From Candidatus Omnitrophota bacterium (lineage in GTDB: Bacteria > Omnitrophota > Gorgyraeia > Gygaellales > Profunditerraquicolaceae), in NCBI GenBank assembly GCA_903852325.1, contig CAINQO010000035.1, positions 34,117-98,116 on the forward strand: a stretch of 64,000 bases of DNA, in the 5' to 3' direction. A program made the translations under genes and the position numbers. Shown here in pieces: positions 5,724 through 56,203 of this stretch. How positions within the stretch are numbered: the stretch's first letter is position 1; every line of letters begins with the position of its first letter. The notes beneath the pieces were generated by a model that saw only the letters and a list, made by a program, of their open reading frames with translations, was not told the origin of the DNA and made no database searches.

Positions 5724-6995
5724 ATGTTTATAATTTATGACTTTGTGTTTTTAATCTTCGCGGTCATTTGCCTGCCGGTTTATTTTATGCGCGGGAAATT
5801 AAGCGGCGCATTTTCCAGGCGCTTGGGTGTCCTGCCGGAACATTTGAATTTGGACCGGCCGATCTGGATCCATGCGGTAAGCGTGGGGGAGGTCAATGCG
5901 GTCAAAGGGCTCCTGTTGCAGCTGCGCCAGGCTTATCCCGGGAAAAAATTGGTAATTTCCACGGTCACCGCCACGGGGAATAAAGTCGCCAGAGAGGTAA
6001 TTAAAGAGGGGGATTTTTTGACTTATCTGCCCCTGGATTTTAGTTTTATCGTGCGCGGCGTATTAAAGAAGATCAACCCCTGCATGTTTATTATCGCCGA
6101 GACCGAGATCTGGCCGAACTTGATCAGCTGTCTGGATAAAGCGGGGATCCCGGTGATCACGGTCAACGGAAGGATCTCGGACCGTTCTTATCGCGGATAC
6201 CGCTTGATCAAATTATTTATCCGGCCGATCCTGCGCAAGGTCTCCCAATTCTGCGTGCAAACCCGGGAGGACGGACGGCGGCTGGAAAATTTAGGGGTGG
6301 AGGCAAAAAAGATCCGGGTGACCGGCAATGTAAAATTCGATATTAATCTTGGCGTTTCCGATGGCCTGGAAGCGAAAGTTTACCGGGATAAACTTTTACT
6401 GGGGGCCTCCGGGCGGTTGCTGGTTTGCGGAAGCACGCATCCGGGGGAAGAAGAATTGATCCTGGATGCCTACCGGAAAATTTTGCCGGCTTTTCCGGAT
6501 TTAAAAATCCTTATTGCTCCCCGGCATCCGGAACGCCGTAAAGAGGTTTGCCGGGTAGTGGAGCAAAAGGGATTTATGCCTTTGCTTATCTCCGCGCTGT
6601 CCGGATTCTGTCCTTCCTGCGTAAATAACCCGGTATTTATTTTGGATACGGTGGGAGAACTGTTCAATTATTATCGGGCCGCGGATATTGTTTTTATCGG
6701 CGGAAGCCTGGTAAAAAAAGGGGGGCACAATATCATTGAGCCGGCCAGTTTAAAGAAACCGGTAATTTTCGGCCCCTACATGTTTAATTTCCGGCAGATC
6801 AGCGAGTTGTTCCTGGCCAATCAGGCCGCGCTTGCCGTTTCCGGCAGCGGGGAATTATCCGAGCGGGTCAAGGAACTCCTCCAGGGCAGCCTTTTAGCCA
6901 AAGGGTTGGCGGAGCGAGCCTACGCATTAATTCTTAAAAATCAGGGAGCAACCCGGAAAAACATAGAGATCATTAAAGAAATAACTAAAACTTAA
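5724..6995 (+). CDS. waaA: 3-deoxy-D-manno-octulosonic acid (Kdo) transferase
   Basis: N-terminal membrane anchor followed by IWIHAVSVGE and the typical KdtA layout. ATG at 5724 is preferred over GTG at 5700 (GAGGAAGG upstream). Confidence 0.9.
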   Translation: MFIIYDFVFLIFAVICLPVYFMRGKLSGAFSRRLGVLPEHLNLDRPIWIHAVSVGEVNAVKGLLLQLRQAYPGKKLVISTVTATGNKVAREVIKEGDFLTYLPLDFSFIVRGVLKKINPCMFIIAETEIWPNLISCLDKAGIPVITVNGRISDRSYRGYRLIKLFIRPILRKVSQFCVQTREDGRRLENLGVEAKKIRVTGNVKFDINLGVSDGLEAKVYRDKLLLGASGRLLVCGSTHPGEEELILDAYRKILPAFPDLKILIAPRHPERRKEVCRVVEQKGFMPLLISALSGFCPSCVNNPVFILDTVGELFNYYRAADIVFIGGSLVKKGGHNIIEPASLKKPVIFGPYMFNFRQISELFLANQAALAVSGSGELSERVKELLQGSLLAKGLAERAYALILKNQGATRKNIEIIKEITKT

Positions 6996-7007
6996 GGGAG
7001 ACTACTT

Positions 7008-7478
7008 ATGGCCGCAGACATTTATATGACCCAGGAAGGTTATGAAAAACTGGTAGGTGAACTGGAATATTTAAAAACCGTCAAACGCCGCCAGCTGGCC
7101 AAAGCGATCGGAGAGGCCCGCGCTTACGGGGATATCAGCGAAAATGCGGAGTATGACGCGGCCAAGGACGCGCAAGCCCACAACGAAAAAGAAATTATGG
7201 AATTAGAGGATAAGCTTTCCCGGGTGCGCATCCTGGATAAAAATATTCCCAAAGACCAGGTTTTGATCGGGGCAAAAGTAAAATTATTGGATATGGATAC
7301 ACAGGAAGAGTTGGAGTATACTCTTGTGTCCGACCTGGAAGCGGATTATAACCAGGCCAAGATCTCCGTCAGTTCTCCGGTAGGTTCAGGTTTGCTGGGG
7401 CATAAAGTTAATGAGGTCGCCGAAATTAAAATCCCCGCGGGGATACTAAAGTATAAAATTATCGAAATAACCCGTTAA
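7008..7478 (+). CDS. greA: transcription elongation factor GreA
   Basis: MTQEGYEKL...GDISENAEYDAAK coiled-coil motif; 156 aa. Confidence 0.95.
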   Translation: MAADIYMTQEGYEKLVGELEYLKTVKRRQLAKAIGEARAYGDISENAEYDAAKDAQAHNEKEIMELEDKLSRVRILDKNIPKDQVLIGAKVKLLDMDTQEELEYTLVSDLEADYNQAKISVSSPVGSGLLGHKVNEVAEIKIPAGILKYKIIEITR

Positions 7479-14598: not shown

Positions 14599-14664
14599 AG
14601 GAAGGGCGGATTGAATCCCGCCCTTCCTCAGCGATTTAAGTTAGCAAAGGAAGGGTTGGGATGA
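14599..14664 (+). promoter_or_regulatory. three-arm SD-copy / anti-SD / SD switch with short uORF upstream of the GT4-GT9 gene
   Basis: AGGAAGGGCGG (14599-14609) pairs with CCGCCCTTCCT (14618-14628). The same middle arm can instead pair with AGGAAGGGTTGGGA (14648-14661), which holds the SD and the A of ATG 14661. The uORF runs from TTG 14611 to TGA 14664. Confidence 0.55.
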
Positions 14665-16754
14665 AGATTTTACAAATTTTGCCGGAACTTAATGTCGGAG
14701 GGGTAGAGACCGGGACGGTGGACCTTTCCCGTCATCTGGTGCGCCTGGGGCATAAATCGGTGGTGGTTTCCGCCGGCGGAGCGCTGGTCAAAGAACTGGA
14801 GGAGGCGGGGGCTAAACACTATCAACTGCCGGTAAATAAAAAATCCATCATCTCCATGATCAAGCTGGTTCCGGAGTTAGCCGAAATTATCAAACGGGAA
14901 GGGATCGAGATCGTACATGCCCGCTCAAGGGCGCCGGCCTGGATCGCTTATTTTGCCTGCCGAAGGACCCAGGCGGTATTCGTTACCACTTGCCACGGTT
15001 ATTACCAGAAACATCTTTTTAGCGCGGTAATGGGCTGGGGCAAAAAAGTGATCGTTTTAAGCAACGTGATCGCCCGGCACATGATCGAGGATTTTGCCGT
15101 TCCCCATGAGCGGATCAAGCTGGTGCCGCGCAGCGTGGATCTGGAGAAATTTAAATACCGGGACCCTAAAAACAAAAGGAAAGAAGATTTTAATGTCGGT
15201 ATCATCGGCCGGATCACCCCGCTAAAAGGGCATTTGCATTTTATCAAAGCCATGGCACGCATTTCCCGCTCCGTCCCGCGCCTGAAGATCTGGATCGTCG
15301 GCGATGCTCCGGCTTCCAAGGAAGCTTATAAAGAAGAACTGCAAATTTTAGTGCGCCGCCTGGGTTTATGGCATTGCACGGAATTTCTGGGCACGCAGCG
15401 GGATATTCCGGGAATATTGGAGAACCTGGATCTGGTGGTTTTAGCCACGACTACTCAGGAGGCCTTCGGCAGGGTGGTTGTAGAGGCGCAGGCCTGCGGG
15501 GTACCGGTGGTGGCGACCAGGGTCGGAGGGGTGATCGATATTATCGAGGACGGCAAGAACGGGCTCCTGGTCCCTCCGGCGGATTCCAAAAGCATGTCGG
15601 AGGCGGTGATGCGTATTTTTAAGGACGCGGAATTCGCCCGCATCCTGGCGGAAAATGCCTACGCTAAGGTCAAAGAAAAATATAATGTGGAATTGATGGT
15701 CAAAAATACTTTAGAGGTTTACCGGGAGGCGCTGAATAATTTTAAGATCCTGGTGATCAAGCTCAGTTCTTTAGGGGACGTGATCCTTTCTACGGCGGCC
15801 TTAAGGGCGATCCGGGAAAAATTTCCCCAAAGTAAATACAAGATAAGTTTTCTGGTCGGGGAAGAATCCAAGGACCTGCTTTTGCGCTGCCCGTATATCG
15901 ACGAACTTCTGGTTTGCGACTTAAAAAATAAGGACCGCGGCCCCTTCGGTTTGCTGAGGATGGGTCAGCTTTTACGGAAGAAAAATTTCGACTCGGTGAT
16001 CGATCTGCAAAATAGCCGTTCCAGCCACCTGCTGGCTTATCTGAGCGGTTGCGTCCACCGCTACGGATATGACAATAAAAAGTTTTCCTTTTTGCTCAAC
16101 TACCGGATCCAGGATCAAAAAACCCCGCTGGACCCGGTAACCCACCAGTTCAGGATCCTTAAGCTGCTGGGGATCGACCTGTTGAATAATGCCCTTGAGC
16201 TTTGGCCTTCCGCGGAAGACCGGGAGAAGGTGGAGGAACTTTTTAATTCCCAATGGTTGAGCCAGGTGCAGAAAGTGGTGGGGATCAATATCAGCGCTTC
16301 CTCCAGATGGGAGACAAAACTCTGGCCGCTGGAATACGTGATCACCCTGTGTGAAGAACTGGAAGCCAGGGATATCCGGGTGGTCATTACCGGTAAGCAA
16401 GAGGATCAGCCGCGCGCCAACATGCTCGTCGATTCGCTTAAGAACACCAAGGTGATCAATGCCTGCGGCAAGACCAATATCAACGAATTGGCGGTGTTGA
16501 TCAAAAAATGCAATGTGTTCATCTCCGCCGATTCTTCTCCTTTGCATATCGCTTCCGCGGTGGGCACTCCTTTTGTCGCTTTGTTCGGCCCGACGGATCC
16601 TTTGCGGCACCTTCCCCCCGGGGCTAATTACGCGGTGATCGATAAGAAATTGAATTGCAGCCCTTGTTATAAAAATAGATGCCGCAGTAAGCGCTGCATG
16701 ATCGAGATCGATCCGGCGCAGGTTTTTGAAGCGGTAATGAAGTTATTGAAATAA
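14661..16754 (+). CDS. fusion glycosyltransferase: GT4 (N-terminal) plus GT9 heptosyltransferase-like (C-terminal)
   Basis: The N-terminal half has a GT4 E(x7)E-type region (EAFGRVVVEAQACGVPVV). The C-terminal half starts FKILVIKLSSLGDVILS and ends with GPTDP...CSPC, typical of GT9. Confidence 0.8.
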   Translation: MKILQILPELNVGGVETGTVDLSRHLVRLGHKSVVVSAGGALVKELEEAGAKHYQLPVNKKSIISMIKLVPELAEIIKREGIEIVHARSRAPAWIAYFACRRTQAVFVTTCHGYYQKHLFSAVMGWGKKVIVLSNVIARHMIEDFAVPHERIKLVPRSVDLEKFKYRDPKNKRKEDFNVGIIGRITPLKGHLHFIKAMARISRSVPRLKIWIVGDAPASKEAYKEELQILVRRLGLWHCTEFLGTQRDIPGILENLDLVVLATTTQEAFGRVVVEAQACGVPVVATRVGGVIDIIEDGKNGLLVPPADSKSMSEAVMRIFKDAEFARILAENAYAKVKEKYNVELMVKNTLEVYREALNNFKILVIKLSSLGDVILSTAALRAIREKFPQSKYKISFLVGEESKDLLLRCPYIDELLVCDLKNKDRGPFGLLRMGQLLRKKNFDSVIDLQNSRSSHLLAYLSGCVHRYGYDNKKFSFLLNYRIQDQKTPLDPVTHQFRILKLLGIDLLNNALELWPSAEDREKVEELFNSQWLSQVQKVVGINISASSRWETKLWPLEYVITLCEELEARDIRVVITGKQEDQPRANMLVDSLKNTKVINACGKTNINELAVLIKKCNVFISADSSPLHIASAVGTPFVALFGPTDPLRHLPPGANYAVIDKKLNCSPCYKNRCRSKRCMIEIDPAQVFEAVMKLLK

Positions 16755-16806: not shown

Positions 16807-16894
16807 AGGGGCGGGATGACCCCGCACCATCTTCTAATTCACGCTTTAAGTCCTAAGGTTTAATAACAATTAACTATAAGGATGGTGCGGGGTG
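16807..16894 (+). promoter_or_regulatory. anti-SD/SD hairpin module upstream of the GT4 gene (degenerate uORF)
   Basis: CCCCGCACCATCTT (16820-16833) pairs with AAGGATGGTGCGGGG (16879-16892) over 14 bp including one G-U. The GTG start is at 16892. Confidence 0.55.
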
Positions 16895-17992
16895 CGGATT
16901 TTATTTTTAGCCAATCATCTTAATGTCGGGGGGATCTCCAGTTACTTGCTGACCTTGGGTAGCGGATTGAAAGAAAAAGGGCATGAGGTTTATTTGGCCT
17001 CCGGGGGCGGTGAATTAGAGGAAAAATTCCGGCAGGCCGGAATAATCCTGATCAATGTCCCCTTGAAAACAAAAAGCGAGATCAGTCCGAAGATCCTGAT
17101 CAGTTACTGGAAATTAAAAAAGGCCGCTGCCGGTTTGCGGATCGAGCTTATTCATTCGCACAGCCGGACCACCCAGGTTTTGGGATGCTGGCTGGGCCGC
17201 TCCCTGGGCAGGCCGCATATTTTTACCTGCCACGGTTTCTTTAAACCGAAACTGCCGCGCAAGGTTTTCGGCTGCTGGGGCCAAAGGGTAATTGCTATCA
17301 GCTCCCAGGTCAAAGAGCACTTGACCGCGGATTTTAAATTCAGCGAAAATAAGATTAGCGTGATCCATAACGGCATCGACACGCAAAAATTCGGGGATTT
17401 TTCGGGAAGGGACCGCTTGCGCAGCAGTTTAGGGGTCGCCCCGGATGGTTTTTTGATCGGGATCATCGCCCGCCTCTCCGATGTGAAGGGGCATCTTTAC
17501 CTTATCCGGGCGATGCCGGAGATTTTAAAAAAATTCCCCGGGACCAAATTAGCGATAATCGGTCAGGGTAAGACCGAAGGCTCTTTGGTCAAAGAAACAG
17601 GGAATTTAGGGTTAGAGGGCAATATTTTATTTGTCCCGGAAGCAAAAGATACCCGGGAATGGCTTTGCGCCATGGATGTTTTTGCCATGCCTTCGCTGCA
17701 GGAAGGCTTGGGGCTGGCTTTGATGGAAGCGATGGCTCAGGGTTTAGCCGTGGCCGGATCGGCGGTAGGGGGGATCAAAACCCTGGTCCAGGATAAAATT
17801 ACCGGACTGCTGGTCCCGGCGCGGGATGCGGGGGCGCTGGCGCAGGCGATCATCTCTTTGCTTGGGGATCCGGATTTACGCCGTAATTTAGGGGATCAGG
17901 CGCGCGAATTTATCGCCGCTAATTTTTCTAAAAAAGAAATGGTGGAAAAGACCGAAGGCCTTTACCGGCAGGTTTTAAATCCCAATGAGTGA
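16892..17992 (+). CDS. GT4 family glycosyltransferase
   Basis: MRILFLANHLNVGGISSY start and a C-terminal EGLGLALMEAMAQGLAV motif. Confidence 0.85.
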   Translation: MRILFLANHLNVGGISSYLLTLGSGLKEKGHEVYLASGGGELEEKFRQAGIILINVPLKTKSEISPKILISYWKLKKAAAGLRIELIHSHSRTTQVLGCWLGRSLGRPHIFTCHGFFKPKLPRKVFGCWGQRVIAISSQVKEHLTADFKFSENKISVIHNGIDTQKFGDFSGRDRLRSSLGVAPDGFLIGIIARLSDVKGHLYLIRAMPEILKKFPGTKLAIIGQGKTEGSLVKETGNLGLEGNILFVPEAKDTREWLCAMDVFAMPSLQEGLGLALMEAMAQGLAVAGSAVGGIKTLVQDKITGLLVPARDAGALAQAIISLLGDPDLRRNLGDQAREFIAANFSKKEMVEKTEGLYRQVLNPNE

Positions 17993-21315: not shown

Positions 21316-22245
21316 ATGATCAACTTAAAGAAGGTTAAAAGATATTCGCTTAAAGCCCGTTTAAGCAAGGTAAATAAGGGGGATTTTGCCCTTAAACCGG
21401 CTAAAGGCAGGAGTTTTTCCGTTTTTTTTGACTCCTTACCTAATATTTTAAAAGCCAAAGATTTACGCTCGGTTTCTGCCGATATTATCGCGGCGCGCCG
21501 GAAAAATAAAGGGGTGATTTTAATGGCCGGGGCCCACGTGATCAAGTGCGGGCTTAATCCGGTTTTGATCGAGTTGTTGGAAAAAAAAGTGATTACCTGT
21601 ATCTGCCTTAACGGGGCCGGATTGATCCACGATTTTGAGATCGCCTACCAGGGGAAGACTTCGGAAGATGTGGCCGCCAACCTCAAAGACGGGAAATTCG
21701 GGATGGGGATCGAGACCGCGGATTTTATCAACGCCGCGGTCAAAGAAGGGACTGAGGCGGGCTTTGGATTAGGTTATGCCTTAGCCAATAAAATGGCCGG
21801 GGCAGCTTTACCCAATAAAGATCTAAGCCTGATTTATAATGCCTATAAGCGTAAAATCCCGGTTTGTGTTTTTGCGGCGATCGGTACGGATATAATCCAT
21901 CAGCACCCTTCTTTCGACGCTGCGGCAACCGCCGTGGGCTCATTGCGGGATTTCCATATCCTGGTGGAGAGGATCCGCTCCTTGAATCAGGGGGGAGTGG
22001 TTTTAAATTTCGGCTCCGCGGTGCTTTTGCCTGAAGTATTTTTAAAGGCTTTGAACCTTGCCCGCAACCTGGGCAGCAAAGTGAAAGATTTTACTTCCGC
22101 TAATTTCGATATGATTTACCAGTACCGCGCGGCACAGAATGTAGTGAGCCGTCCCACCGCTTCCGGGGGTAAAGGCTATTATATTATCGGTCACCATGAG
22201 ATCATGCTGCCGCTTTTAGCCCAAAGTATATTGGAAAAAATCTGA
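21316..22245 (+). CDS. deoxyhypusine-synthase-like (DHS-fold) family protein, function unknown
   Basis: MAGAHVIKCGLNPVLIELLEKKVITCICLNGAGLIHDF and IPVCVFAAIGTDIIHQHP resemble DHS-family blocks; this is a by-eye call only. ATG 21316 is preferred over the track's TTG at 21277. Confidence 0.45.
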   Translation: MINLKKVKRYSLKARLSKVNKGDFALKPAKGRSFSVFFDSLPNILKAKDLRSVSADIIAARRKNKGVILMAGAHVIKCGLNPVLIELLEKKVITCICLNGAGLIHDFEIAYQGKTSEDVAANLKDGKFGMGIETADFINAAVKEGTEAGFGLGYALANKMAGAALPNKDLSLIYNAYKRKIPVCVFAAIGTDIIHQHPSFDAAATAVGSLRDFHILVERIRSLNQGGVVLNFGSAVLLPEVFLKALNLARNLGSKVKDFTSANFDMIYQYRAAQNVVSRPTASGGKGYYIIGHHEIMLPLLAQSILEKI

Positions 22246-22317
22246 CCCCGCACCTTCTTCGTATTCGATCTGAAGGTCAGGGGTAAAAAATAGTTAATAA
22301 TAGGAAGGTGCGGGGTG
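22246..22317 (+). promoter_or_regulatory. anti-SD/SD hairpin module between the DHS-like gene stop and the heptose kinase start
   Basis: CCCCGCACCTTCTT (22246-22259) begins directly after the TGA stop (22243-22245). It pairs over 14 bp with AGGAAGGTGCGGGG (22302-22315). The GTG start is at 22315. Confidence 0.6.
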
Positions 22318-23328
22318 AAGAACCTAAAAGAGATTGTCCGCAAATTCAAGCGGGCTAATATTTTGGTCGTCGGAGACCTGATCCTGGATGAATACATCTG
22401 GGGCGCGGTGGAGAGGATCTCTCCGGAGGCTCCCGTGCCGGTGCTTTGGGCCAACAAACGTACTTTTGTTCCCGGGGGCACCGCTAACGTGGCCAATAAC
22501 ATCGGCTCCTTCGGGGCAAAAGTGACTCTTTTGGGGGTCACCGGTTCCGACGCGAACTCCAAGATTTTGCTGGGCGAATTAAAGAAGAGAAAGATCGATA
22601 CGCGGGGTATTTTTGTCGAAAAAAATCGGCACACTACGGTCAAGACGCGGATCCTGGCCGGGCATCAGCAGGTAGTCCGGGTGGATTGGGAACATACCCA
22701 TGATCTGTCTCAAGAGTTAAACGATAAGATTTTAAAATTCATCCAGAAGAATATCGATGATTTCGACGCGATCATTATCGAGGATTACGGCAAAGGGGTA
22801 ATCAATGTCCCGCTCTTGAAAACGCTGATCGCTTTGGCGAAAAACCATAAAAAAATCATTACCGTTGATCCGAAAGAGGAGAACTTTCAGTTTTATCGGT
22901 CGGTAGATTCGATCACTCCTAACCGCAAGGAGCTGGAAAACGCGATAAGGAATTTGAAGATCCAGGACACGACCAACGGTTTCAAGATCAATACGGATAA
23001 ACTCTTTACGGATAAGGATGTGGACCGGGCTGCCCGGGAGATCCTGGAATACCTGCGTCTTGATTCTATTCTGGTTACCCTGGGGGAGCACGGGATGAAA
23101 CTTTTGGAAAAGAACGGCCGCCTTACCCATATTCCCACGGTAGCCCAGGAAGTTTTCGATGTTTCCGGCGCGGGGGATACCGTAATCAGCACCTTTACCC
23201 TGGCTTTAAGCGTGGGCGCTTCCAAATTAGAGGCGGCGCACATCGCCAATTTTGCCGCAGGGATAGTGGTAGGTAAATTGGGCACGGCAGTGACCAACAC
23301 TAAAGAACTATTAGAAAGGATTAAATAA
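22315..23328 (+). CDS. hldA: D-glycero-beta-D-manno-heptose-7-phosphate kinase (RfaE domain I type, stand-alone)
   Basis: ILVVGDLILDEYIWGAVERISPEAPVPV and the PfkB C-terminal motif DVSGAGDTV. No adenylyltransferase domain is present. Confidence 0.85.
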   Translation: MKNLKEIVRKFKRANILVVGDLILDEYIWGAVERISPEAPVPVLWANKRTFVPGGTANVANNIGSFGAKVTLLGVTGSDANSKILLGELKKRKIDTRGIFVEKNRHTTVKTRILAGHQQVVRVDWEHTHDLSQELNDKILKFIQKNIDDFDAIIIEDYGKGVINVPLLKTLIALAKNHKKIITVDPKEENFQFYRSVDSITPNRKELENAIRNLKIQDTTNGFKINTDKLFTDKDVDRAAREILEYLRLDSILVTLGEHGMKLLEKNGRLTHIPTVAQEVFDVSGAGDTVISTFTLALSVGASKLEAAHIANFAAGIVVGKLGTAVTNTKELLERIK

Positions 23329-24881: not shown

Positions 24882-24899
24882 ACTTTAATAAGGTGCGGG

Positions 24900-25868
24900 A
24901 TGAGTATTGATTTGATCAAACGGGCAAAAGAAGTTTTGGAAATCGAAGCGCAGGCAGTGCGCCGGTTAAAGGGGTGCCTGGATAAAGGTTTTATTAAAGC
25001 GGTTGAGCTGATCCTGAAGAGCAAGGGCAGGGTAGTGGTTAGCGGAATGGGCAAGACCGGAATTATCGCCCAAAAATTTTCCGCGACTCTTGCTTCGACC
25101 GGGACCCCCAGTTTATTCCTGCATACCGCCGAAGCTATTCACGGGGATTTAGGCAAGGTTACCGCGGATGATGTGGTGATCATCCTTTCTAACAGCGGTT
25201 CGACCGAGGAGATGAAACAGCTTTTGCCGATCCTCAAAAAGATCGGCGCTCCGATCATTTCTTTGACCGGCAACACCAAATCCATTCTGGCCAAATACAG
25301 CGATGTGGTCCTGGATGTCTCCGTGAAAAAAGAGGCCTGTCCGTTAGGTTTGGCCCCCACGGCTTCCACTACCGCGGCTTTGGCGATGGCCGATGCCCTG
25401 GCGGTCTGCCTGCTGGAACGTAAGGGGTTTAAAGAAAAGGATTTTGCATTTTTCCATCCTGGGGGCACTTTAGGCAAGCGCCTGCTTTTGAGCGTCGCGG
25501 ATATCATGCGCCAGGGGCAGTCTAATGCCATTGTCCGCGAGGATAAATTGGTGGCGGAAGTTTTGTTGGCGATTACCCGGGCCCGGGCCGGCAGCGCTAT
25601 TGTGGTGGATAAGCAGGGAAAACTGAAGGGGATATTCACCGACGGAGACCTGCGCCGGCATTTAGCCACCGACAAGTATTTACCGCAGCGGCCGATCAAA
25701 GAAGTAATGACCAAAAACCCCACGGTAGTGAGCAAAGATATGCTGGCGGCAGAGGCGATGCGGATATTACAGGCCAGGAAGATCGATGAAGTCCCGGTGG
25801 TGGATAAATTCAGGCGCCCGGTGGGCTTATTGGATGTCCAGGACCTGCTTAAAGCCGGATTAATTTAA
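24900..25868 (+). CDS. kdsD: arabinose-5-phosphate isomerase (SIS plus tandem CBS)
   Basis: GRVVVSGMGKTGIIAQKF SIS motif and a C-terminal CBS pair. Its initiation string AAGGTGCGGGATG belongs to the recurrent family. Confidence 0.9.
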   Translation: MSIDLIKRAKEVLEIEAQAVRRLKGCLDKGFIKAVELILKSKGRVVVSGMGKTGIIAQKFSATLASTGTPSLFLHTAEAIHGDLGKVTADDVVIILSNSGSTEEMKQLLPILKKIGAPIISLTGNTKSILAKYSDVVLDVSVKKEACPLGLAPTASTTAALAMADALAVCLLERKGFKEKDFAFFHPGGTLGKRLLLSVADIMRQGQSNAIVREDKLVAEVLLAITRARAGSAIVVDKQGKLKGIFTDGDLRRHLATDKYLPQRPIKEVMTKNPTVVSKDMLAAEAMRILQARKIDEVPVVDKFRRPVGLLDVQDLLKAGLI

Positions 25869-27403: not shown

Positions 27404-28106
27404 GGGCCTGGCTAAATCCTATGACGGTCGCTGGGTGGTTAAGGGCGTGGATATCACGGTCAAGCGCGGGGAGATCGTCGGGCTTTTAGGCCCCAACGGA
27501 GCCGGCAAGACTACTACTTTTTATATGATCGTCGGGATCGTCCCCCCCAACAAGGGCACGATCGTTTTTGATAACCATGAAATCACCCGGATGGCGATCC
27601 ACGAGCGGGCGCGTTTCGGGATCGGCTATCTTGCCCAGGAACCCTCGATATTCCGGAAACTGACCGTGGAAGAAAATATCAACGCGATCCTGGAGACTTT
27701 GCCTTTGAGCCGCGCGCAGAGAAAAAACCGGCTGGCGTTTTTGCTGGAGGAGTTGAATATCGCGCACCTGGCAAAGCATAAAGCCTACACTTTAAGCGGC
27801 GGAGAGAGAAGGCGCCTGGAGATCACCCGGGCGCTGGTGACCAATCCTTCTTTTATCCTGCTGGATGAACCTTTCAGCGGGATCGACCCGATCGTCGTCA
27901 ATGAAGCGCAGGAGATCATTAAGGAATTAAAGGCCAAAGGCCTGGGTATTCTTTTGACCGACCATAATGTGCGGGAGACCCTGGCGATCACCGACCGGGC
28001 GTATTTAATTTCCGAAGGGGCGATCCTTATTTCCGGATCCGCGGAGGAGCTGATTAATCACCCTCAGGCCCGCCAGGTTTATTTAGGTGAGAAGTTTAGG
28101 ATGTAA
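27384..28106 (+). CDS. lptB: LPS export ABC transporter ATP-binding protein
   Basis: Walker A is GPNGAGKTT, the signature is [11 protein letters not shown] and Walker B is ILLDEP. The C-terminus is YLGEKFRM. Confidence 0.95.
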
Positions 28107-28248
28107 CCCCGCACCTTCTTCTGTATTCGGAAGAAAAACGGATTGATTAAAGGCGCGGGACAATAATAACCATGGTCATTTCTTTAAACATCAAGGTTCA
28201 AAGCTTAGATGCAGGGAATGATATAATTAAGAAAGAAGGTGCGGGGTG
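28107..28248 (+). promoter_or_regulatory. anti-SD/SD hairpin module (109-nt loop) between the lptB stop and the tig start
   Basis: CCCCGCACCTTCTT (28107-28120) begins directly after the TAA stop. It pairs perfectly over 14 bp with AAGAAGGTGCGGGG (28233-28246). The GTG start is at 28246. Confidence 0.6.
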
Positions 28249-29133
28249 AAAACCGAAGTTAAGAAATTAGACGGAACTAAACGTGAAATTAATGTCGCCG
28301 TGACCGGCGACTTGGTCAAAAATAAATTTGAAGAAGTTTTCGCACAGGTCGCCAAAGAAGCCAAGGTCCCGGGTTTTCGCCCGGGAAAAGCGCCCCGGGA
28401 TCTTCTGGAAAAGCATTACGGTTCCAGCGTCCATGAGCAGGTGTTAAAGGAGCTGGTCCCGGATGTGTATAACCAGGCGGTCGCGGCGGAAAAACTCGAT
28501 GTCATTGAGCTGCCCCAGATCACCGATGTGCAGCTGGATCGGGCCAGCCTTTCTTTTAAAGCGGTCGTGGAGGTCAGCCCGGAAATTACGCTGAAGAATT
28601 ATAAAAACCAGGTAATTAATTATAAGCTGCCGGTTGTTTCCGCGGATGAAGTGAAACGCCAGATCGACTCGGTCAAGGAATCGCGTAAGGCCGAAAACCT
28701 GGATGATAAATTCGCCCGCTCCCTGGGTTATCCTGATTTAGGGGAATTGGAAAAAGCGGTGGAAAGACAGATCTTTCTTACCAAGGAGAATCAGGAACGC
28801 CAGCGGATTGAAAATGAATTAATCGAAAATATTACCAAAGGGGTGGAATTTAAGCTGCCGCAAGGATTGGTGGACCGGCAGGTTCAGGATATGCTGCGGC
28901 AGACCAAGATCGATTTGGCGATGAAAGGGCTGCCCCGGGAGAAGATCGACGCGCAGGATAAATTGCTTTTAGAGGGGATCGAACCGGAAGCAAAAAAGCA
29001 GGTCAAGATTTACCTGATCCTGGCGCAGATCGCGAAAAAAGAGAATATCGCCATCGACGACCATATGCCGCGCAAGGTGATGGAGTTTCTGCTGGGTGAA
29101 GCAGAGTGGAAGGCTGCACAAGAGAATAAATAG
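28246..29133 (+). CDS. tig: trigger factor-like chaperone lacking the PPIase domain
   Basis: The N-terminal ribosome-binding signature GFRPGKAP is present. The C-terminal arm domain follows directly, giving 295 aa versus about 430 for canonical TF. Confidence 0.8.
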   Translation: MKTEVKKLDGTKREINVAVTGDLVKNKFEEVFAQVAKEAKVPGFRPGKAPRDLLEKHYGSSVHEQVLKELVPDVYNQAVAAEKLDVIELPQITDVQLDRASLSFKAVVEVSPEITLKNYKNQVINYKLPVVSADEVKRQIDSVKESRKAENLDDKFARSLGYPDLGELEKAVERQIFLTKENQERQRIENELIENITKGVEFKLPQGLVDRQVQDMLRQTKIDLAMKGLPREKIDAQDKLLLEGIEPEAKKQVKIYLILAQIAKKENIAIDDHMPRKVMEFLLGEAEWKAAQENK

Positions 29134-29266
29134 CGGTATTCATGTTGATTAGCTCCGCGCCTAAGCCTTGGATGTTACGCTTAGCATATATTCGAATATT
29201 GTAACGCGCGGAGTAAATTAAAAATTACCACTTATTATAAATAATTTTAAATTTAAGGAGGCAAAA
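29131..29266 (+). promoter_or_regulatory. structured leader/repeat upstream of clpP (copy 1 of 2)
   Basis: About 90 nt are shared with 55531-55645. The 8-bp stem CTCCGCGC/GCGCGGAG (29153-29160/29206-29213) encloses hairpin CTAAGC/GCTTAG and the palindrome ATATTCGAATAT. Confidence 0.55.
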
Positions 29267-31090: not shown

Positions 31091-31220
31091 CAAATCCTAG
31101 GCACTAAATCCTAAACTCTAAACAAACTCAAAAAATTTAAACTCAAAACCCGAAACATGGGTTTGGAGTTTTGGATTTTGGATTTGTTTAGGATTTAGAG
31201 TTTAGTGTTTAGAGTTTAGA
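31091..31220 (+). repeat. inverted pair of heptamer tandem arrays forming a long imperfect hairpin
   Basis: The left arm is built of CTAAAYY-type 7-mers (31091-31151). The apex is AAAACCC-gaaacat-GGGTTT. The right arm is built of TTTAGRR/TTTGGAK 7-mers (31159-31220). Confidence 0.5.
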
Positions 31221-31240
31221 ATAATAATGAGGGGTGAGAG

Positions 31241-34569: not shown

Positions 34570-35804
34570 CACATAAGCCGAAAATTTATCTTTTAGATGT
34601 GACTAATCGCGACGGGGTGCAGACCTCGCGCATTTGCCTTTCCAAGCTGCAAAAAACCATGATCAACTGGTACCTTGACCAGATGGGCGTATATCAATCG
34701 GAATTCGGATTTCCGCTTACCCGCCATGAGACAAATTATCTTAACGCTAACCTGGAACTGGTCAAATTAGGGGGGTTTTCCCGGATCCGCTTGAGCGGCT
34801 GGCTGCGGGCGACAAAAGAGGATGTCAAGGGGGCTTTGAAGCTTGTCCCGCATTTAAAATATCTGAACCTTTCTATCTCCACCAGCGACCAGATGATCGT
34901 GCATAAATTTAAAGGCAAGCTTGACCATCAGTCGGTGATCGCAGAGATGCAGGAAGCGGTGGCTGCGGCTAAGGAAGCCGGGGCGGAATGCATCGGGGTA
35001 AATGCCGAGGATGCCTCGCGGACTAACCTGGATTACCTGGTGGAGTTTTCCCTTAAAGCCAAAGAAGCGGGGGCCGACCGTATCCGCTACTGCGACACTC
35101 TGGGGTGCGATACGCCTTTTAGCATCTATGACCGGATCAAGTTCCTGGCGGAAAATGTTGGCCTGCCCATCGAAGTGCACTGCCACAATGATTTAGGACT
35201 GGTGGTGGCTAACTCCATCGCCGGGGCAAGGGCGGCGGCGGATGCCGGGCAGGATTCTTACATCAATACTTGCGTGAACGGGATGGGGGAGCGCGCCGGT
35301 AACGCCGATCTGGTTTCCGTGATCCTGGCGATTAAATACGGCCAGGGGATGAATGGTTATACCCTGGATGAAAAAGTGGATTTAAAGATGGCCTGGAAGA
35401 TCTGCAAATACGCTTCTTATGCTTTCGGGGTTCCTATCCCGATCAACCAGCCGGGAGTGGGGGCCAATGCCTTCGCCCATGAATCCGGGATCCATGCCGA
35501 CGGGGCTTTAAAGGACAGGCGCAATTACGAACTTTACGATTATGAGGAGCTGGGCCGCGGGGAACCGGAGATAATCGAAACCGGGCGCAAGATCACCGCC
35601 GGAGAATATTCGGGGATCAAGGGGTTCCGCAATGTTTATGAAAAACTGGAAGTGGCTTTCAAGGACGACGCAGAAGCAACGCGCATTTTGGAGCTGGTCC
35701 GCTACGCCAATGTGCATAACCAGAAACCGCTGGTCGACGATGAATTGAATTTTATCGCTAAATATCCGGATATCGCGCATAAGATATTTACGATGACCCC
35801 GTAA
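34566..35804 (+). CDS. homocitrate / 2-isopropylmalate / citramalate synthase family (HMGL-like) enzyme without a LeuA regulatory domain
   Basis: LLDVTNRDGVQ and HCHNDLGLVVANSIAG motifs; 412 aa. Confidence 0.75.
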   Translation: MTHKPKIYLLDVTNRDGVQTSRICLSKLQKTMINWYLDQMGVYQSEFGFPLTRHETNYLNANLELVKLGGFSRIRLSGWLRATKEDVKGALKLVPHLKYLNLSISTSDQMIVHKFKGKLDHQSVIAEMQEAVAAAKEAGAECIGVNAEDASRTNLDYLVEFSLKAKEAGADRIRYCDTLGCDTPFSIYDRIKFLAENVGLPIEVHCHNDLGLVVANSIAGARAAADAGQDSYINTCVNGMGERAGNADLVSVILAIKYGQGMNGYTLDEKVDLKMAWKICKYASYAFGVPIPINQPGVGANAFAHESGIHADGALKDRRNYELYDYEELGRGEPEIIETGRKITAGEYSGIKGFRNVYEKLEVAFKDDAEATRILELVRYANVHNQKPLVDDELNFIAKYPDIAHKIFTMTP

Positions 35805-35852
35805 ATATCGAACGAGAGAGTAGTTAGCAGGCTGAATGCGGGTTAGTTAACA

Positions 35853-37198
<1,346 letters not shown>

Positions 37199-53550: not shown

Positions 53551-53719
53551 AGGAAGGGCGGGATGAACCCTGCATTTTCTTGTTATTCAATATTAAAGTC
53601 TTAGGAATTTGATGATTAAACAGAAGGAAGGTGCGGGGGTGAATCCCGCTCCTTCTAATTGTTCAATGCTAAAACCCATACGTTTTAAAGAATTCAATAA
53701 GAAAGAAGGAGCGGGATGA
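53551..53719 (+). promoter_or_regulatory. tandem (about 2.5 copies) anti-SD/SD hairpin modules with two uORFs between trpS and scpA
   Basis: The arms lie at 53551-53562, 53568-53582, 53621-53639, 53644-53656 and 53704-53716. The last pair is a perfect 13-bp helix covering the SD GAAGGAG and the A of ATG 53716. Confidence 0.6.
53639..53719 (+). CDS. candidate 26-aa leader peptide (uORF2); its stop overlaps the scpA ATG
   Basis: The frame GTG 53639 to TGA 53717-53719 encodes (V/M)NPAPSNCSMLKPIRFKEFNKKEGAG. It is preceded by an SD copy GAAGGTG and is homologous to the uORF at 35853-35933. Confidence 0.35.
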   Translation: MNPAPSNCSMLKPIRFKEFNKKEGAG

Positions 53720-54489
53720 ATTATAAAATCCGCTTAGAGATGTTTGAGGGGCCCTTAGACCTGCTGCTTTACCTGGTCAAGAAAGACCACCTGAATATCT
53801 ACGATATCCCCATCGCCAAGGTCACCCAGCAATACCTGGAATATATCAACCTGATGCAGCTTTTGGATTTGAATGTGGTCGGGGAGTTTTTGGTGATGGC
53901 GGCGACCCTGATGCAGATAAAATCCAAGATGCTTCTTCCGGCGGAGGAGTTGGCCGCGCAGGAGGAGGAAGAGGATCCGCGCGCTGAGCTGGTCAAGCGG
54001 CTTTTGGAATATGAAAAATTCAAACAGATCGCCGAAAATTTAAAACAGCGGGAAGCCAGCCAGCAGGAAGTTTTTAAACGCCCCAAGACCGAGACCCCGC
54101 AGGAGCTGCAGGTGCAGGATAAGGAAGAGGAAAAGTATTTTGAAGCCAGCATTTTTGACCTGATCGATGCCTTTTCCCGGGCGATCAAAGACATCCCCCG
54201 GGAAGTTTTTTACGAAGTGATTAAGGATCAGTTTACGGTCGAGCAGAAGGTGCATGATATTCTGCATTTATTGCTGGTAGAAACAAAAATCAAGCTTTCG
54301 GATCTTTTCTCCAAGAGCAAGGGCAAGCTAGAGATCATCGCCATATTTTTGGCGATCCTTGAGCTGGCGAAAATGAAGGAGATCCTTGCCCGCCAGGACG
54401 CCGATTTTGCCGACATTATCATTATCCGCAACAAGGAAAACATAATCCCTTATGAACGAAGAGACCAGACACCCGCTGCTGAAGGCTAA
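53716..54489 (+). CDS. scpA: segregation and condensation protein A
   Basis: FEGPLDLLLYLVKKDHLNIYDIPIAKVTQQYLEYI N-terminus. Confidence 0.9.
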   Translation: MNYKIRLEMFEGPLDLLLYLVKKDHLNIYDIPIAKVTQQYLEYINLMQLLDLNVVGEFLVMAATLMQIKSKMLLPAEELAAQEEEEDPRAELVKRLLEYEKFKQIAENLKQREASQQEVFKRPKTETPQELQVQDKEEEKYFEASIFDLIDAFSRAIKDIPREVFYEVIKDQFTVEQKVHDILHLLLVETKIKLSDLFSKSKGKLEIIAIFLAILELAKMKEILARQDADFADIIIIRNKENIIPYERRDQTPAAEG

Positions 54490-55504
54490 TTCCGTTATCA
54501 CCGACGTAAAAGAATCCGAAGAGGATATTGTTTTAAATATATCCCTGCGGCCAAATAAATTTACGGATTTTGTCGGGCATAAGGATATCGTGGATAACCT
54601 TAAAATTTCCATCCAGGCCGCCAAGCAAAGGAGCGAGCCCCTGGAGCATGTGCTTTTAAGCGGGCCTCCGGGTTTAGGCAAAACTTCCCTGTCGCATATT
54701 ATCGCTCACGAAATGGGGGCAAAGATCACCGCCACCAGCGGCCCGGCGATCGAGCGGGCCGGGGACCTGATCGGGATCCTTACCAACCTGGAAAGAGGGG
54801 ATATCCTGTTTATCGACGAGATCCACCGGATGTCTAAAGTCGTGGAAGAATTCCTGTATCCGGCGATGGAAAGTTTCCAGATCGATTTTATAATCGATAA
54901 AGGCCCTTACGCTAAAACGATTAAATTCAACCTCAAGCCTTTTACCCTGATCGGCGCCACCACCCGCACCGGGCTTCTGGCCGCTCCGCTCAGGGGGCGC
55001 TTCGGTTTGTTCTACAGCCTGGATTTTTATAAAGAGGAGGAGCTGGCCAGAATAATCAAAAATTCAAGCCAGCTGTTGACGATAAAGATCGATGACGCGG
55101 CGGCACTGGAGATCGCCAAGCGTTCCCGGGGGACTCCCCGGATCGCCAACCGCCTCCTGCGCCGGGTAAGGGATTACGCTCAGGTGTTGAAAATGGATAA
55201 AGTCGAACGGGCCTCGGCCTCCAAGATCCTGGATGACCTGGGTATCGACCAGGCCGGGTTTGATGACCTGGACCGTAAAGTTTTGAGATTAATTTTGGAA
55301 TCATTCGGCGGAGGGCCGGTGGGGATAGAATCTTTGGCCGCCAGCCTCAATGAAGAAGTGGATACGATCGAAGATGCGGTGGAACCCTATCTGTTGATGG
55401 CCGGATATTTAAAGCGCACTTCCCGGGGGCGCCTGGCCACCCGTAAAGCTTATGAACATTTCGGTTTAAAATTCAACCGGGAACAGCAGGAAGAGATTTT
55501 CTAA
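54452..55504 (+). CDS. ruvB: Holliday junction branch migration helicase RuvB
   Basis: LRPNKFTDFVGH, GPPGLGKTSL, IDEIHR and RGTPRIANRLLRRVRD motifs. Confidence 0.95.
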   Translation: MNEETRHPLLKANSVITDVKESEEDIVLNISLRPNKFTDFVGHKDIVDNLKISIQAAKQRSEPLEHVLLSGPPGLGKTSLSHIIAHEMGAKITATSGPAIERAGDLIGILTNLERGDILFIDEIHRMSKVVEEFLYPAMESFQIDFIIDKGPYAKTIKFNLKPFTLIGATTRTGLLAAPLRGRFGLFYSLDFYKEEELARIIKNSSQLLTIKIDDAAALEIAKRSRGTPRIANRLLRRVRDYAQVLKMDKVERASASKILDDLGIDQAGFDDLDRKVLRLILESFGGGPVGIESLAASLNEEVDTIEDAVEPYLLMAGYLKRTSRGRLATRKAYEHFGLKFNREQQEEIF

Positions 55505-55645
55505 ATTAACAATTGCCACTGATTATAATAGGTAGTGGTTGAAAGCGTCGAACTAAGCCTATAGGTTACGGTTTATATATATTCGAATATTGAAACGTTC
55601 GACGTAAATTAAAAATTACCACTGATTATAAACAATTTTTAATTT
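55505..55645 (+). promoter_or_regulatory. structured leader/repeat upstream of queH (copy 2 of 2)
   Basis: The 8-bp stem CGTCGAAC/GTTCGACG (55546-55553/55597-55604) compensates for the copy-1 stem. It carries the same ATATTCGAATAT palindrome and the AAATTAAAAATTACCACT tail. It is flanked by direct repeats AATT(G/A)CCACTGATTATAA (55511-55528 and 55614-55631). Confidence 0.55.
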
Positions 55646-56203
55646 ATGGATATTCTGTTGCACATCTGCTGCGGGCCTTGTTTGATTTATCCTTTCGGCA
55701 AATTAAAAGAAAAAGGATTTAATATCCGGGGTTATTACTATAATCCCAATCTCTATCCGCAGGATGAATATCTTCGCCGCGTTGAGGCGCTGCAGCTCTT
55801 ATGCCGGGAATTTTCGCTGGAGGTCGCCTATCCCGGGCACAACCCTGAGGATTTTTCCCGGACAGTTAAATCCCTGGAAGATCCTTTGGCAAAACAGCGC
55901 TGCGTTTTATGCTGGTCATTGCGTTTGCGTAAGACCGCCCAGGCGGCCAGGGAAGCCGGCGTAAAAACGTTCAGCACTACTTTATTGGTCAGCCCGTACC
56001 AGGATCATGACGCGTTGCGCCGTTTAGGCACTCAGATCGCCCGGGAAACCGGCGTAGATTTTTATTATGAAGATTTCCGCCCCGGGTTTAAATGGGCGCA
56101 GCAGGAAGCGAAAGATAAAGGTATTTACCGGCAAAAATATTGCGGCTGCGAATATTCCATGGTGAAAACAAAACCGGCCGCACCGGTCCAGGCAAAAAAA
56201 TGA
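55646..56203 (+). CDS. queH: epoxyqueuosine reductase QueH (DUF208)
   Basis: LLHICCGPC start and the later CxxC and CGCEYS motifs. It lies in a locus with queA and tgt. Confidence 0.85.
   Translation: MDILLHICCGPCLIYPFGKLKEKGFNIRGYYYNPNLYPQDEYLRRVEALQLLCREFSLEVAYPGHNPEDFSRTVKSLEDPLAKQRCVLCWSLRLRKTAQAAREAGVKTFSTTLLVSPYQDHDALRRLGTQIARETGVDFYYEDFRPGFKWAQQEAKDKGIYRQKYCGCEYSMVKTKPAAPVQAKK

Follow-up and report, generated by a model that had tools for sequence, protein, structure and literature searches.

An inverted repeat between lptB and tig in a 64,000-nt stretch of a Candidatus Omnitrophota genome (contig CAINQO010000035.1; the whole stretch is referred to here as the window) places the ribosome-binding site (RBS) of tig inside a predicted stem. 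Our analysis indicates that the segment involved (28107–28246) is probably a composite, partly decayed copy of a non-autonomous mobile element that inserts at start codons and whose RBS-masking stem would be opened by upstream translation. A first-pass annotation of the window had described this segment as the long-loop copy of a repeat, and the assignment to a repeat family holds: a covariance model detects 8 units in the window, each located at the start of a gene and each with its better score on the gene strand, and more copies occur in other metagenome-assembled genomes (MAGs). The window was not picked for its elements.

The inverted repeat between lptB and tig

The lptB gene encodes an ABC ATPase of 240 aa and ends ...AGG ATG TAA, as in its orthologues. 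Its stop codon (TAA, 28104–28106) directly abuts the 5′ arm CCCCGCACCTTCTT (28107–28120), which resembles an anti-Shine–Dalgarno (anti-SD) sequence and forms the left terminal inverted repeat. The right terminal inverted repeat, the 3′ arm AAGAAGGTGCGGGG (28233–28246), holds the SD motif GAAGG 6 nt before the start as well as the first base of the tig GTG (28246–28248); like every feature listed for this locus and its relatives in the window, both arms are given on the + strand. Pairing between the arms is perfect (14 of 14 bp), as had been claimed for exactly these segments over the tig SD and first start base, and A28106–T28247 adds a 15th pair. The TGAA at 28247–28250 corresponds to the right copy of the family's usual target duplication, and empty orthologues read ATGAAAAC here. 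The tig product matches TIGR00115 along with Pfam Trigger_N and Trigger_C. This trigger factor (28246–29133) is only 295 aa long and has no peptidyl-prolyl isomerase (FKBP) domain between Trigger_N and Trigger_C; orthologues in 80 related loci are equally long. Three other contigs with an identical Tig protein are 100% identical over 2–11 kb and show no strain polymorphism at the tig copy.

With respect to folding, the minimum-energy structure of 28095–28260 (166 nt) contains the long-range stem and reaches −50 kcal/mol (z = −4.86, equalled by 0 of 200 shuffles). Within 28095–28260 lie a local hairpin, TTCTTC (28116–28121) with GAAGAA (28130–28135), whose loop holds the conserved TATTCG (28124–28129); a decoy, AAGGCGCGGG (28150–28159), complementary to the 5′ arm at 9 of 10 positions; the segment AACCATGGTCATTTCTT (28168–28184); and an inner hairpin, GGTCATTTCTT/AGGGAATGAT (28174–28222), that is predicted in the closed and open conformers alike. 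A putative extended −10-like sequence, TGATATAAT (28219–28227), also falls within the loop, without a matching −35. If the tig RBS is constrained to be open, the 5′ arm is predicted to pair with the decoy in a helix that encloses the TTCTTC/GAAGAA hairpin, a fold lying 14.7 kcal/mol higher than the closed ensemble. The competing helices proposed in the first-pass annotation are in this sense reproduced, with the 5′ arm:decoy conformer predicted to be the weaker, open alternative, and its coordinates for the arms, lptB stop, tig GTG, hairpin, decoy and TATTCG are all exact. The decoy is moreover family-wide: duplexes of the 5′ arm with the loop average −12.7 kcal/mol versus −6.5 kcal/mol in shuffled loops, and an internal purine-rich segment complementary to the left arm reaches −12 kcal/mol or better in 67 of 110 elements. 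This count and the other family counts below (n = 110–114 elements) are among the matches listed in a species-representative scan.

The tig copy spans 140 nt and is longer than ordinary units, so the larger loop that had been noted is confirmed as to length. Its reading as one unit with an expanded loop is less secure, as the covariance model splits the copy into 28101–28163 (11.4 bits) and 28164–28252 (20.2 bits). This split puts the decoy at the right-arm position of unit one, of which it is possibly the decayed 3′ arm, and AACCATGGTCATTTCTT, a weak match, at the left-arm position of unit two. On the model's division, the long loop is probably a tandem pair in which each unit has one decayed arm, like the pair at 53562–53722; this reading is tentative because the scores are low. 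An origin of the decoy plus CAATAATAA from the native tig leader (AAGAAAGGGAACAAATGAA) was also considered, and the likeness is too weak to prefer it over tandem units. The left flank of the copy is the lptB stop (ATG TAA), the native leader and its ATG being gone, and the flanking 4-mers are unequal (GTAA left, TGAA right), which leaves this copy without a target duplication. A small deletion after insertion would, as a conjecture, give the present junction of lptB and the left arm. Finally, the Asn-Pro-Ala (NPA) frame of the tig copy (T|AAC CCC GCA...) lacks a start codon and meets a stop after 13 codons; that this frame is a remnant, as had been suggested, agrees with the mini-open reading frame (mini-ORF) found throughout the family and described below.

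Distribution and consensus of the family

At up to 2 mismatches the 14-mer occurs 11 times in the window versus 0.98 times expected, a number reached in 0 of 100 shuffles. Scanning one genome per species with the pattern CCCGCNCCTTC-N41-71-GAAGGNGCGGGRTG gave at least 113 loci. The real elements number at least about 110, in at least 40 species-level MAGs, of which at least 30 are labelled Omnitrophota and at least 10 carry labels of Planctomycetota classes. Scan matches in Streptomyces, Azospirillum, Pirellulales, Bacteroidales and Patescibacteria were excluded as unrelated GC-rich palindromes or chance. The Streptomyces loci (L013, L021, L032, L047, L054, L064, L069, L095, L105 and L116) contain GC-rich palindromes, CCCGCCCCTTCCCG...CGGGAAGGGGCGGGGTG, of which both strands match the pattern; they are a separate repeat family that has the core in common by chance.

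The family consensus reads ATGAAC-CCCGCACCTTCT-AAATATTCA...TGAATAAGAA-AGAAGGTGCGGG-GTGAA, with terminal inverted repeats of 13–14 nt (left arm YCCCGCACCTTCT, anti-SD-like; right arm AGAAGGTGCGGGR). Units measure 67–96 nt between arm ends, with modes at 71, 74 and 77 nt, and have no transposase-coding capacity, their sole ORF being the mini-ORF of about 26–33 codons. Copy density is roughly 125 per Mb. Family alignment bears out the earlier view that the conserved parts are the arms and a TATTCR motif, which sits 3–4 nt past the first arm.

Consensus folding of the aligned copies with RNAalifold, a check suggested in the first-pass annotation, yields a single 14-bp stem that includes the first two start-codon bases. 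The stem is present in all aligned copies, and consensus support is confined to it, single copies often lengthening it through ATTCA/TGAAT. Changes on both sides of the stem occur at 10 of 15 pair positions (66 distinct arm pairs), and 92% of arm cells are paired versus 46–53% when the partner is slid by 1–3 columns. Compensatory examples include CCAGCCCCTCCT/AGGAGGGGCTGG (L027), CACGC/GCGTG (L028) and, with two changes, TCCCGCTCC/GGAGCGGGA at 53644 of the window. Unchanged arm pairs are uninformative here because most rows were fetched with a pattern that fixes the arms. Inside the loop, a column-pair scan of a 79-sequence alignment found no co-varying pairs more than 0.18 above expectation.

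Database and literature searches returned little. Rfam 15 gave no match at gathering thresholds anywhere in the window, and 28050–28300 and 35800–35980 had none even at E ≤ 1. [quoted passage not shown] The arm sequences had only incidental exact matches in the literature (porcine circovirus, human RPA2 and HSF2), while MNPAPS, the opening of the mini-ORF peptide, had none and NPAPS appeared only as an unrelated acronym.

Insertion into start codons

Orthologous sites with and without the element provide the clearest view of its mobility. We examined 80 orthologous tig loci (58–86% protein identity; 354 kb) that were fetched by protein homology and not selected for the element; 75 were usable. 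About 70 of these 75 have an empty site that runs from the lptB stop through AAGAAAGGG... to ATGAAAAC, with AAGAAAGGGnnAA preceding ATGAAAAC and often lying 11–20 nt past the lptB stop. Run on the 354 kb of tig loci, the covariance model finds 3 elements (L136, L190 and L195), all exactly on the tig start; together with the window and L077, this makes five filled tig sites. A neighbour-joining tree built from Tig puts the window, L136, L190 and L195 at scattered positions, each with empty-site sisters, and the elements at filled tig sites differ in arm subtype and length. Because of this scatter and these differences, separate gains at the same nucleotide are indicated, and the tig start codon has been hit separately at least four times. 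By the same distribution, the element is not a conserved lptB–tig control device.

At L136 and L195, the element is still preceded on its left by the native SD and ATGAA, the sequence reading ...TTAAGAAAGGGAAAA-ATGAA-[C CCCGCACCTTCT...AGAAGGTGCGGG G]-TGAA-GACTGAG. The same arrangement, A-TGAA-[element]-TGAA, emerges for tig and at least six other genes when filled loci are compared with empty ones (L011 with L065, L023 with L055, L026 with the window gene at 1070, L037 with L052, L046 with L004 and L114 with L034). Left and right flanking 4-mers are identical in 82 of 114 elements, and rare flanks co-vary: TGAG/TGAG and TGGA/TGGA each occur 4 times, and the TGGA genes natively start ATGGAT. 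Since the flanking 4-mers change together with the native start, they point to a true target-site duplication and not to an element-borne end. Insertion of the IS200/IS605 type, in which only the left flank would be target and the right end would belong to the element, was rejected, as the right-hand 4-mer follows the native gene (TGGA for ATGGAT). Judged from these flanks, the element inserts at A|TGRR, most often ATGAA, and leaves a 4-bp direct repeat of the target. An ORF of at least 60 codons lies downstream of 102 of 113 elements, and the only copy off a start among the matches listed is L103, flanked TTAA/TTAA.

These features also bear on the class of the element. The family combines small size and terminal inverted repeats with target duplication and presence/absence at orthologous sites, and by size, repeats, duplication, copy number and presence/absence its sequences qualify it as a MITE.

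Several other inserts were observed between lptB and tig. In L077 (MAG LacPavin_0419_WC90_MAG_41_16; 6313–7192), an Xre/ParS-type antitoxin and RES-domain toxin pair lies between the two genes, and whole and partial copies of the hairpin element are nested between the toxin pair and the tig GTG. A different insert of about 300 nt is found between lptB and tig in L099 (3685–3995) as well as in L120, L121, L127, L132, L155, L156, L169 and L171; it has an inverted repeat, ACAACTTATG...CATAAGTTGT, ends just before the native tig SD, and occurs in relatives without the hairpin element. The lptB–tig spacer thus seems to be a hotspot for several kinds of insert.

Within the window, the genes behind the copies are unrelated: two glycosyltransferase genes, hldE, kdsD, tig, purA and scpA. 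A short member with variant arms CCCGCCCTTCCT/AGGAAGGGTTGGG (14610–14667) marks the start of one glycosyltransferase gene (14661), and a member with the compensatory arm change CCATC/GATGG at 16820 (16814–16898) lies at the GTG of the other (16892), with orthologous copies in L010, L052 and L107. The member at 22240–22321 lies on the GTG of an hldE-type kinase gene (22315), a site that is filled in L037 and L077 and empty in L052. These last two copies, at 16892 and hldE, are kept at orthologous sites across 61–89% protein identity; other copies are decayed. At the kdsD start there is a solo 3′ arm, AATAAGGTGCGGG+ATG (24887–24902), where L077 and L099 have full elements and L037 is empty. The solo arm serves as RBS and start of kdsD, its left arm being gone, and opening this RBS costs only 5.6 kcal/mol; it is a decayed element that has left an unmasked, element-derived RBS. 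Beyond the tig copy (28101–28252 in the two-unit split), a canonical member with intact mini-ORF (35852–35936) occupies the GTG start of purA (35930), and a tandem pair (53562–53722) precedes the ATG of scpA (53716), comprising a decayed unit (53562–53637) and one with an intact mini-ORF and two compensatory arm changes (53638–53722).

The new start codon and the mini-ORF

Insertion strands the original ATG, with its own SD, to the left of the element and rebuilds a start on the right. The right arm brings GAAGG, placed 6 nt ahead of the start. The final base of this arm (G in 69, A in 26 plus 9) and the duplicated TG together make up a new GTG or ATG. The corresponding outer pair of the inverted repeat is C-G in 69 elements, T-A in 26, T-G in 8 and C-A in 9. 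Because the outer pair is usually C-G, GTG is the start of about 70% of the genes that carry an element, and TTG that of a few. Start-codon usage in these genomes is therefore set in part by element load.

The orphaned ATG opens the frame ATG AAC CCC GCA CCT TCT (MNPAPS). When the unit length is in frame, this mini-ORF ends ...GAA GGT GCG GGG TGA (EGAG*), with its TGA overlapping the new start. A start codon is present at −6 in 84 of 110 elements, and 28% of sites have an SD-like sequence upstream of the mini-ORF ATG at −7 kcal/mol or better versus 6% of coding controls. Stops number 117 in the NPAPS frame versus 295 and 279 in the other two, and 44 of 110 units are free of stops versus 16.7 ± 3.7 in shuffles. 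On these counts, the NPAPS frame is open more often than ancestry or chance explains.

Proposed mechanism

In the mRNA, the arms would pair as a stem of 14–15 bp that buries the new RBS. Opening the RBS (−14 to +5) is computed to cost 12–15 kcal/mol in five full-element genes of the window, whereas the cost is 5.2 ± 3.0 kcal/mol in 36 others; binding of free 30S subunits should consequently be poor. Ribosomes translating the mini-ORF, or finishing the upstream gene, would melt the stem, after which reinitiation at the overlapping start, or binding of new 30S subunits, could follow. A ribosome on the mini-ORF would cross the left arm and end on the UGA of GUGA, which is the −4 geometry. RNA unfolding would serve those copies whose mini-ORF stops within the loop. 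Termination–reinitiation coupling at the −4 geometry is well documented, and an RNA-unfolding model has been described as well (PMC12548453).

For tig itself, opening is predicted to cost 14.7 kcal/mol, the left arm follows the lptB stop without a gap, and the stem covers 28233–28247. By ribosome footprint and helicase geometry, roughly the initial 7–9 nt of the arm should lie in the mRNA channel when UAA occupies the A site. An lptB-terminating ribosome positioned on the left arm would then free GGUGCGGGG, including the SD core and the start codon. From this geometry and the folding energies, it is plausible, and in our view most likely, that tig translation is coupled to lptB termination. 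The insertion would be tolerated because translational coupling preserves expression, and by analogy with known repeats discussed below we infer that the Omnitrophota element is a selfish insertion tolerated for keeping its gene translated.

Weighing the alternatives

Some observations count against this account of a coupled, start-codon-inserting mobile element. The scan pattern demanded RTG after the right arm, so that sample is biased to start codons. In 1.2 Mb of loci, no arm pair 150–4000 nt apart enclosed a candidate gene for a transposase or autonomous partner. The tig copy, lacking both a matching target duplication and a native leader, requires an extra deletion step in its history. 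Among arm mismatches, G·U (29) does not significantly exceed A·C (17; p = 0.10), and arm co-variation could therefore reflect a transposase reading both DNA ends instead of selection on an RNA hairpin. Only 36 of 110 mini-ORFs are fully intact, two thirds being broken or out of frame, and for this reason read-through to the junction appears favoured and not obligatory. Finally, TGATATAAT matches the extended −10 (TGnTATAAT) and lies about 7–10 nt upstream of the 3′ arm, where it could give tig its own transcript.

This last point is the core of an alternative that we consider unlikely: a promoter in the loop near 28219–28227 would produce a tig mRNA without the 5′ arm, leaving the inverted repeat a DNA relic with no stem and no translational effect. 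The loop is AT-rich and the 139-nt spacer has room for a promoter; however, TGATATAAT varies no more than is usual for the AT-rich end of the loop in this family (consensus AATGAATTAAATAAGAAAG), a sigma-70 consensus scan, which may not reflect the promoter rules of Omnitrophota, found no −35/−10 pair in 27900–28400, and the single direction of all 62 window ORFs, with short gaps, suggests long co-transcribed units. A dedicated tig riboregulator evolved by the host, in which three helices switch on temperature, ligand or protein, is improbable. The competing helices are real in the thermodynamic model, the decoy occurs family-wide, and tig and clpP are stress-related genes, yet the element is missing at about 70 of 75 orthologous tig loci and has been gained repeatedly, the same element stands before unrelated genes (glycosyltransferases, hldE, purA, scpA), no Rfam match appears even at E ≤ 1, the loop shows no co-variation, and the closed form, with an advantage of about 15 kcal/mol, is much more stable than a thermometer would allow.

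Slightly more improbable still is a repetitive extragenic palindromic (REP)/REPIN-type palindrome or terminator-like element acting in mRNA 3′-end protection, processing or termination between lptB and tig. A stable GC-rich stem right after a stop codon is REP-like, and Liang, Rudd and Deutscher reportedly found in 2015 that REPs close to stop codons affect the upstream gene. Against this, no T-run follows the stem, which is also not called in a terminator scan; target duplications of 4 bp and terminal repeats of 13–14 nt fit a cut- or copy-and-paste element and not REP/RAYT (REP-associated tyrosine transposase); and no RAYT gene was seen, nor any arm-flanked gene found, in the 1.2 Mb of loci. 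The exact fusion of the right arm to start codons would also go unexplained, and the REP/REPIN class (a 20–40-nt imperfect palindrome that has a conserved 5′ tetranucleotide and an associated RAYT gene but no target duplication) differs from an element of 70–95 nt with an AT-rich core and target duplications. That the family is a small protein-coding gene (MNPAPS...KKEGAG) with a functional peptide product seems very improbable indeed. Its frame is depleted of stops, lengths favour multiples of three, and several arm changes are synonymous, third codon positions pairing with third codon positions, but no more than 36 of 110 copies have the ORF intact, the inverted repeats dictate the constant ends of the peptide while its middle is not conserved, and roughly 125 copies per Mb have differing middles. 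In addition, L028 has Pro → His and a moved stop with the base pair kept, and the tig copy has no start codon in that frame.

Relation to known systems

The closest parallel to the start-codon-inserting element is provided by mycobacterial interspersed repetitive units (MIRUs; Supply et al. 1997, as described in the review PMC12548453), mobile repeats whose insertion at a start codon couples an internal ORF at −4 'with minimal impact on expression'. The Omnitrophota element is likewise short, dispersed, apparently mobile, located at start codons, oriented with the gene and capable of tandem arrangement, and the family shares both start-codon insertion and an internal ORF whose stop overlaps the downstream start (−4), the latter being absent from the tig copy. 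It differs in phylum and sequence, the comparison being one of features as given in that review. Only the Omnitrophota element, and not the MIRU account in PMC12548453, has 13–14-nt terminal repeats that form a 14-bp stem over the new RBS, a 4-bp target duplication, its own strong SD and the conversion of most starts to GTG. Because the phylum differs and terminal inverted repeats are present, we regard it as an analogue of MIRUs and not a member.

Bacterial MITEs such as Correia/NEMIS, ERIC, RUP and the Rickettsia palindromic elements (PMC10969869) are similarly small, with terminal inverted repeats, target duplications, many copies, co-transcription with neighbours and presence/absence between relatives, and the Rickettsia elements carry an ORF that fuses in frame with host genes (PMC10969869). 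The terms 'start codon', 'Shine-Dalgarno' and 'ribosome binding' do not occur in the text of this 2024 review of prokaryotic MITEs (PMC10969869). In contrast to the MITEs covered there, the terminal repeats here also act as SD and anti-SD, insertion takes place at the start codon itself, and the repeats are kept across about 40 species-level genomes.

In terms of translational control, coupling by RNA unfolding in f1 genes VII–IX, MS2 coat–lysis and E. coli rpmI–rplT (PMC12548453) similarly involves an RBS-holding stem opened by upstream ribosomes, the left arm here beginning 0 nt past the lptB stop. The known cases are single and evolved in place, whereas here the stem arrives on a mobile element and is the same at many genes. 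In leader-peptide attenuation of cat, cmlA and erm, the coding sequence of the leader ORF constitutes the left arm, while the RBS of the gene under control lies in the right arm. The present element shares this division, with the leader ORF supplying the left arm and the right arm the RBS; unlike in those systems, nothing points to stalling that depends on a drug or signal, and the leader ORF is the orphaned start of a host gene, which in the tig copy lacks a start codon altogether. Terminal repeats acting as SD and anti-SD, start-codon rebuilding and phylum-wide conservation appear to be undescribed in combination, although the concept has precedent.

Other features of the window

The + strand carries all 62 long ORFs of the window, most of which overlap or are separated by very short gaps, an extreme gene-strand bias. 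A second repeat family is represented at 29174–29259 and 55565–55650 (86 nt, 85% identical, AT-rich), with a partial third copy at 55502–55528. It has an internal palindrome, GTTACG..TATATTCGAATATT..GTAACG, and lies just upstream of clpP (29267) and the QueH gene (55646), both of which start ATGGATATT; this could be a further element close to gene starts that is mobile or carries a promoter. Between the aminotransferase gene and serA, the spacer (31092–31222) carries inverted arrays of a heptamer-like unit (CTAAATCCTAAAC... / GTTTAGGATTTAGAGTTTAG...), which make up a 29-nt inverted repeat that is 79% complementary and unrelated to the hairpin element.

Implications

Whether the element is more than a tolerated parasite bears on its role in these genomes. 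We give a minority weighting to the view that it homes to translation starts, has been co-opted as a genome-wide gate, or both; these options are kept in view since the same terminal repeats span about 40 species, tig was hit at least 4 times and off-start insertions are almost absent. Homing may proceed by reading of the SD–ATG signature, for example through pairing of the anti-SD-like arm with the target SD on single-stranded DNA, or through a transposase with an ATGRR target. As a gate, the element may have made roughly one gene in ten strictly dependent on upstream translation and switched it to GTG.

On a practical level, and if the proposed reading holds, gene callers will put starts in the wrong place, predict spurious 26-aa proteins and report too many GTG starts for these genomes, and presence or absence of the element offers fine-scale strain markers for an uncultured phylum. 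The tig locus also carries a caution, in that a striking SD-sequestering hairpin at one locus need not be a locus-specific regulator. Intact, frame-shifted, solo-arm and tandem copies together constitute a natural test set for distinguishing termination–reinitiation from RNA unfolding. If the proposed mechanism is true, the ends of the Omnitrophota element would be transposon termini, a ribosome-binding site and the mask of that site at once. The family would then represent a second independent answer, after MIRUs, to the problem of inserting at the most sensitive nucleotide of a gene without killing the gene, with the structural twist that the new RBS would be sequestered until upstream translation opens the stem.

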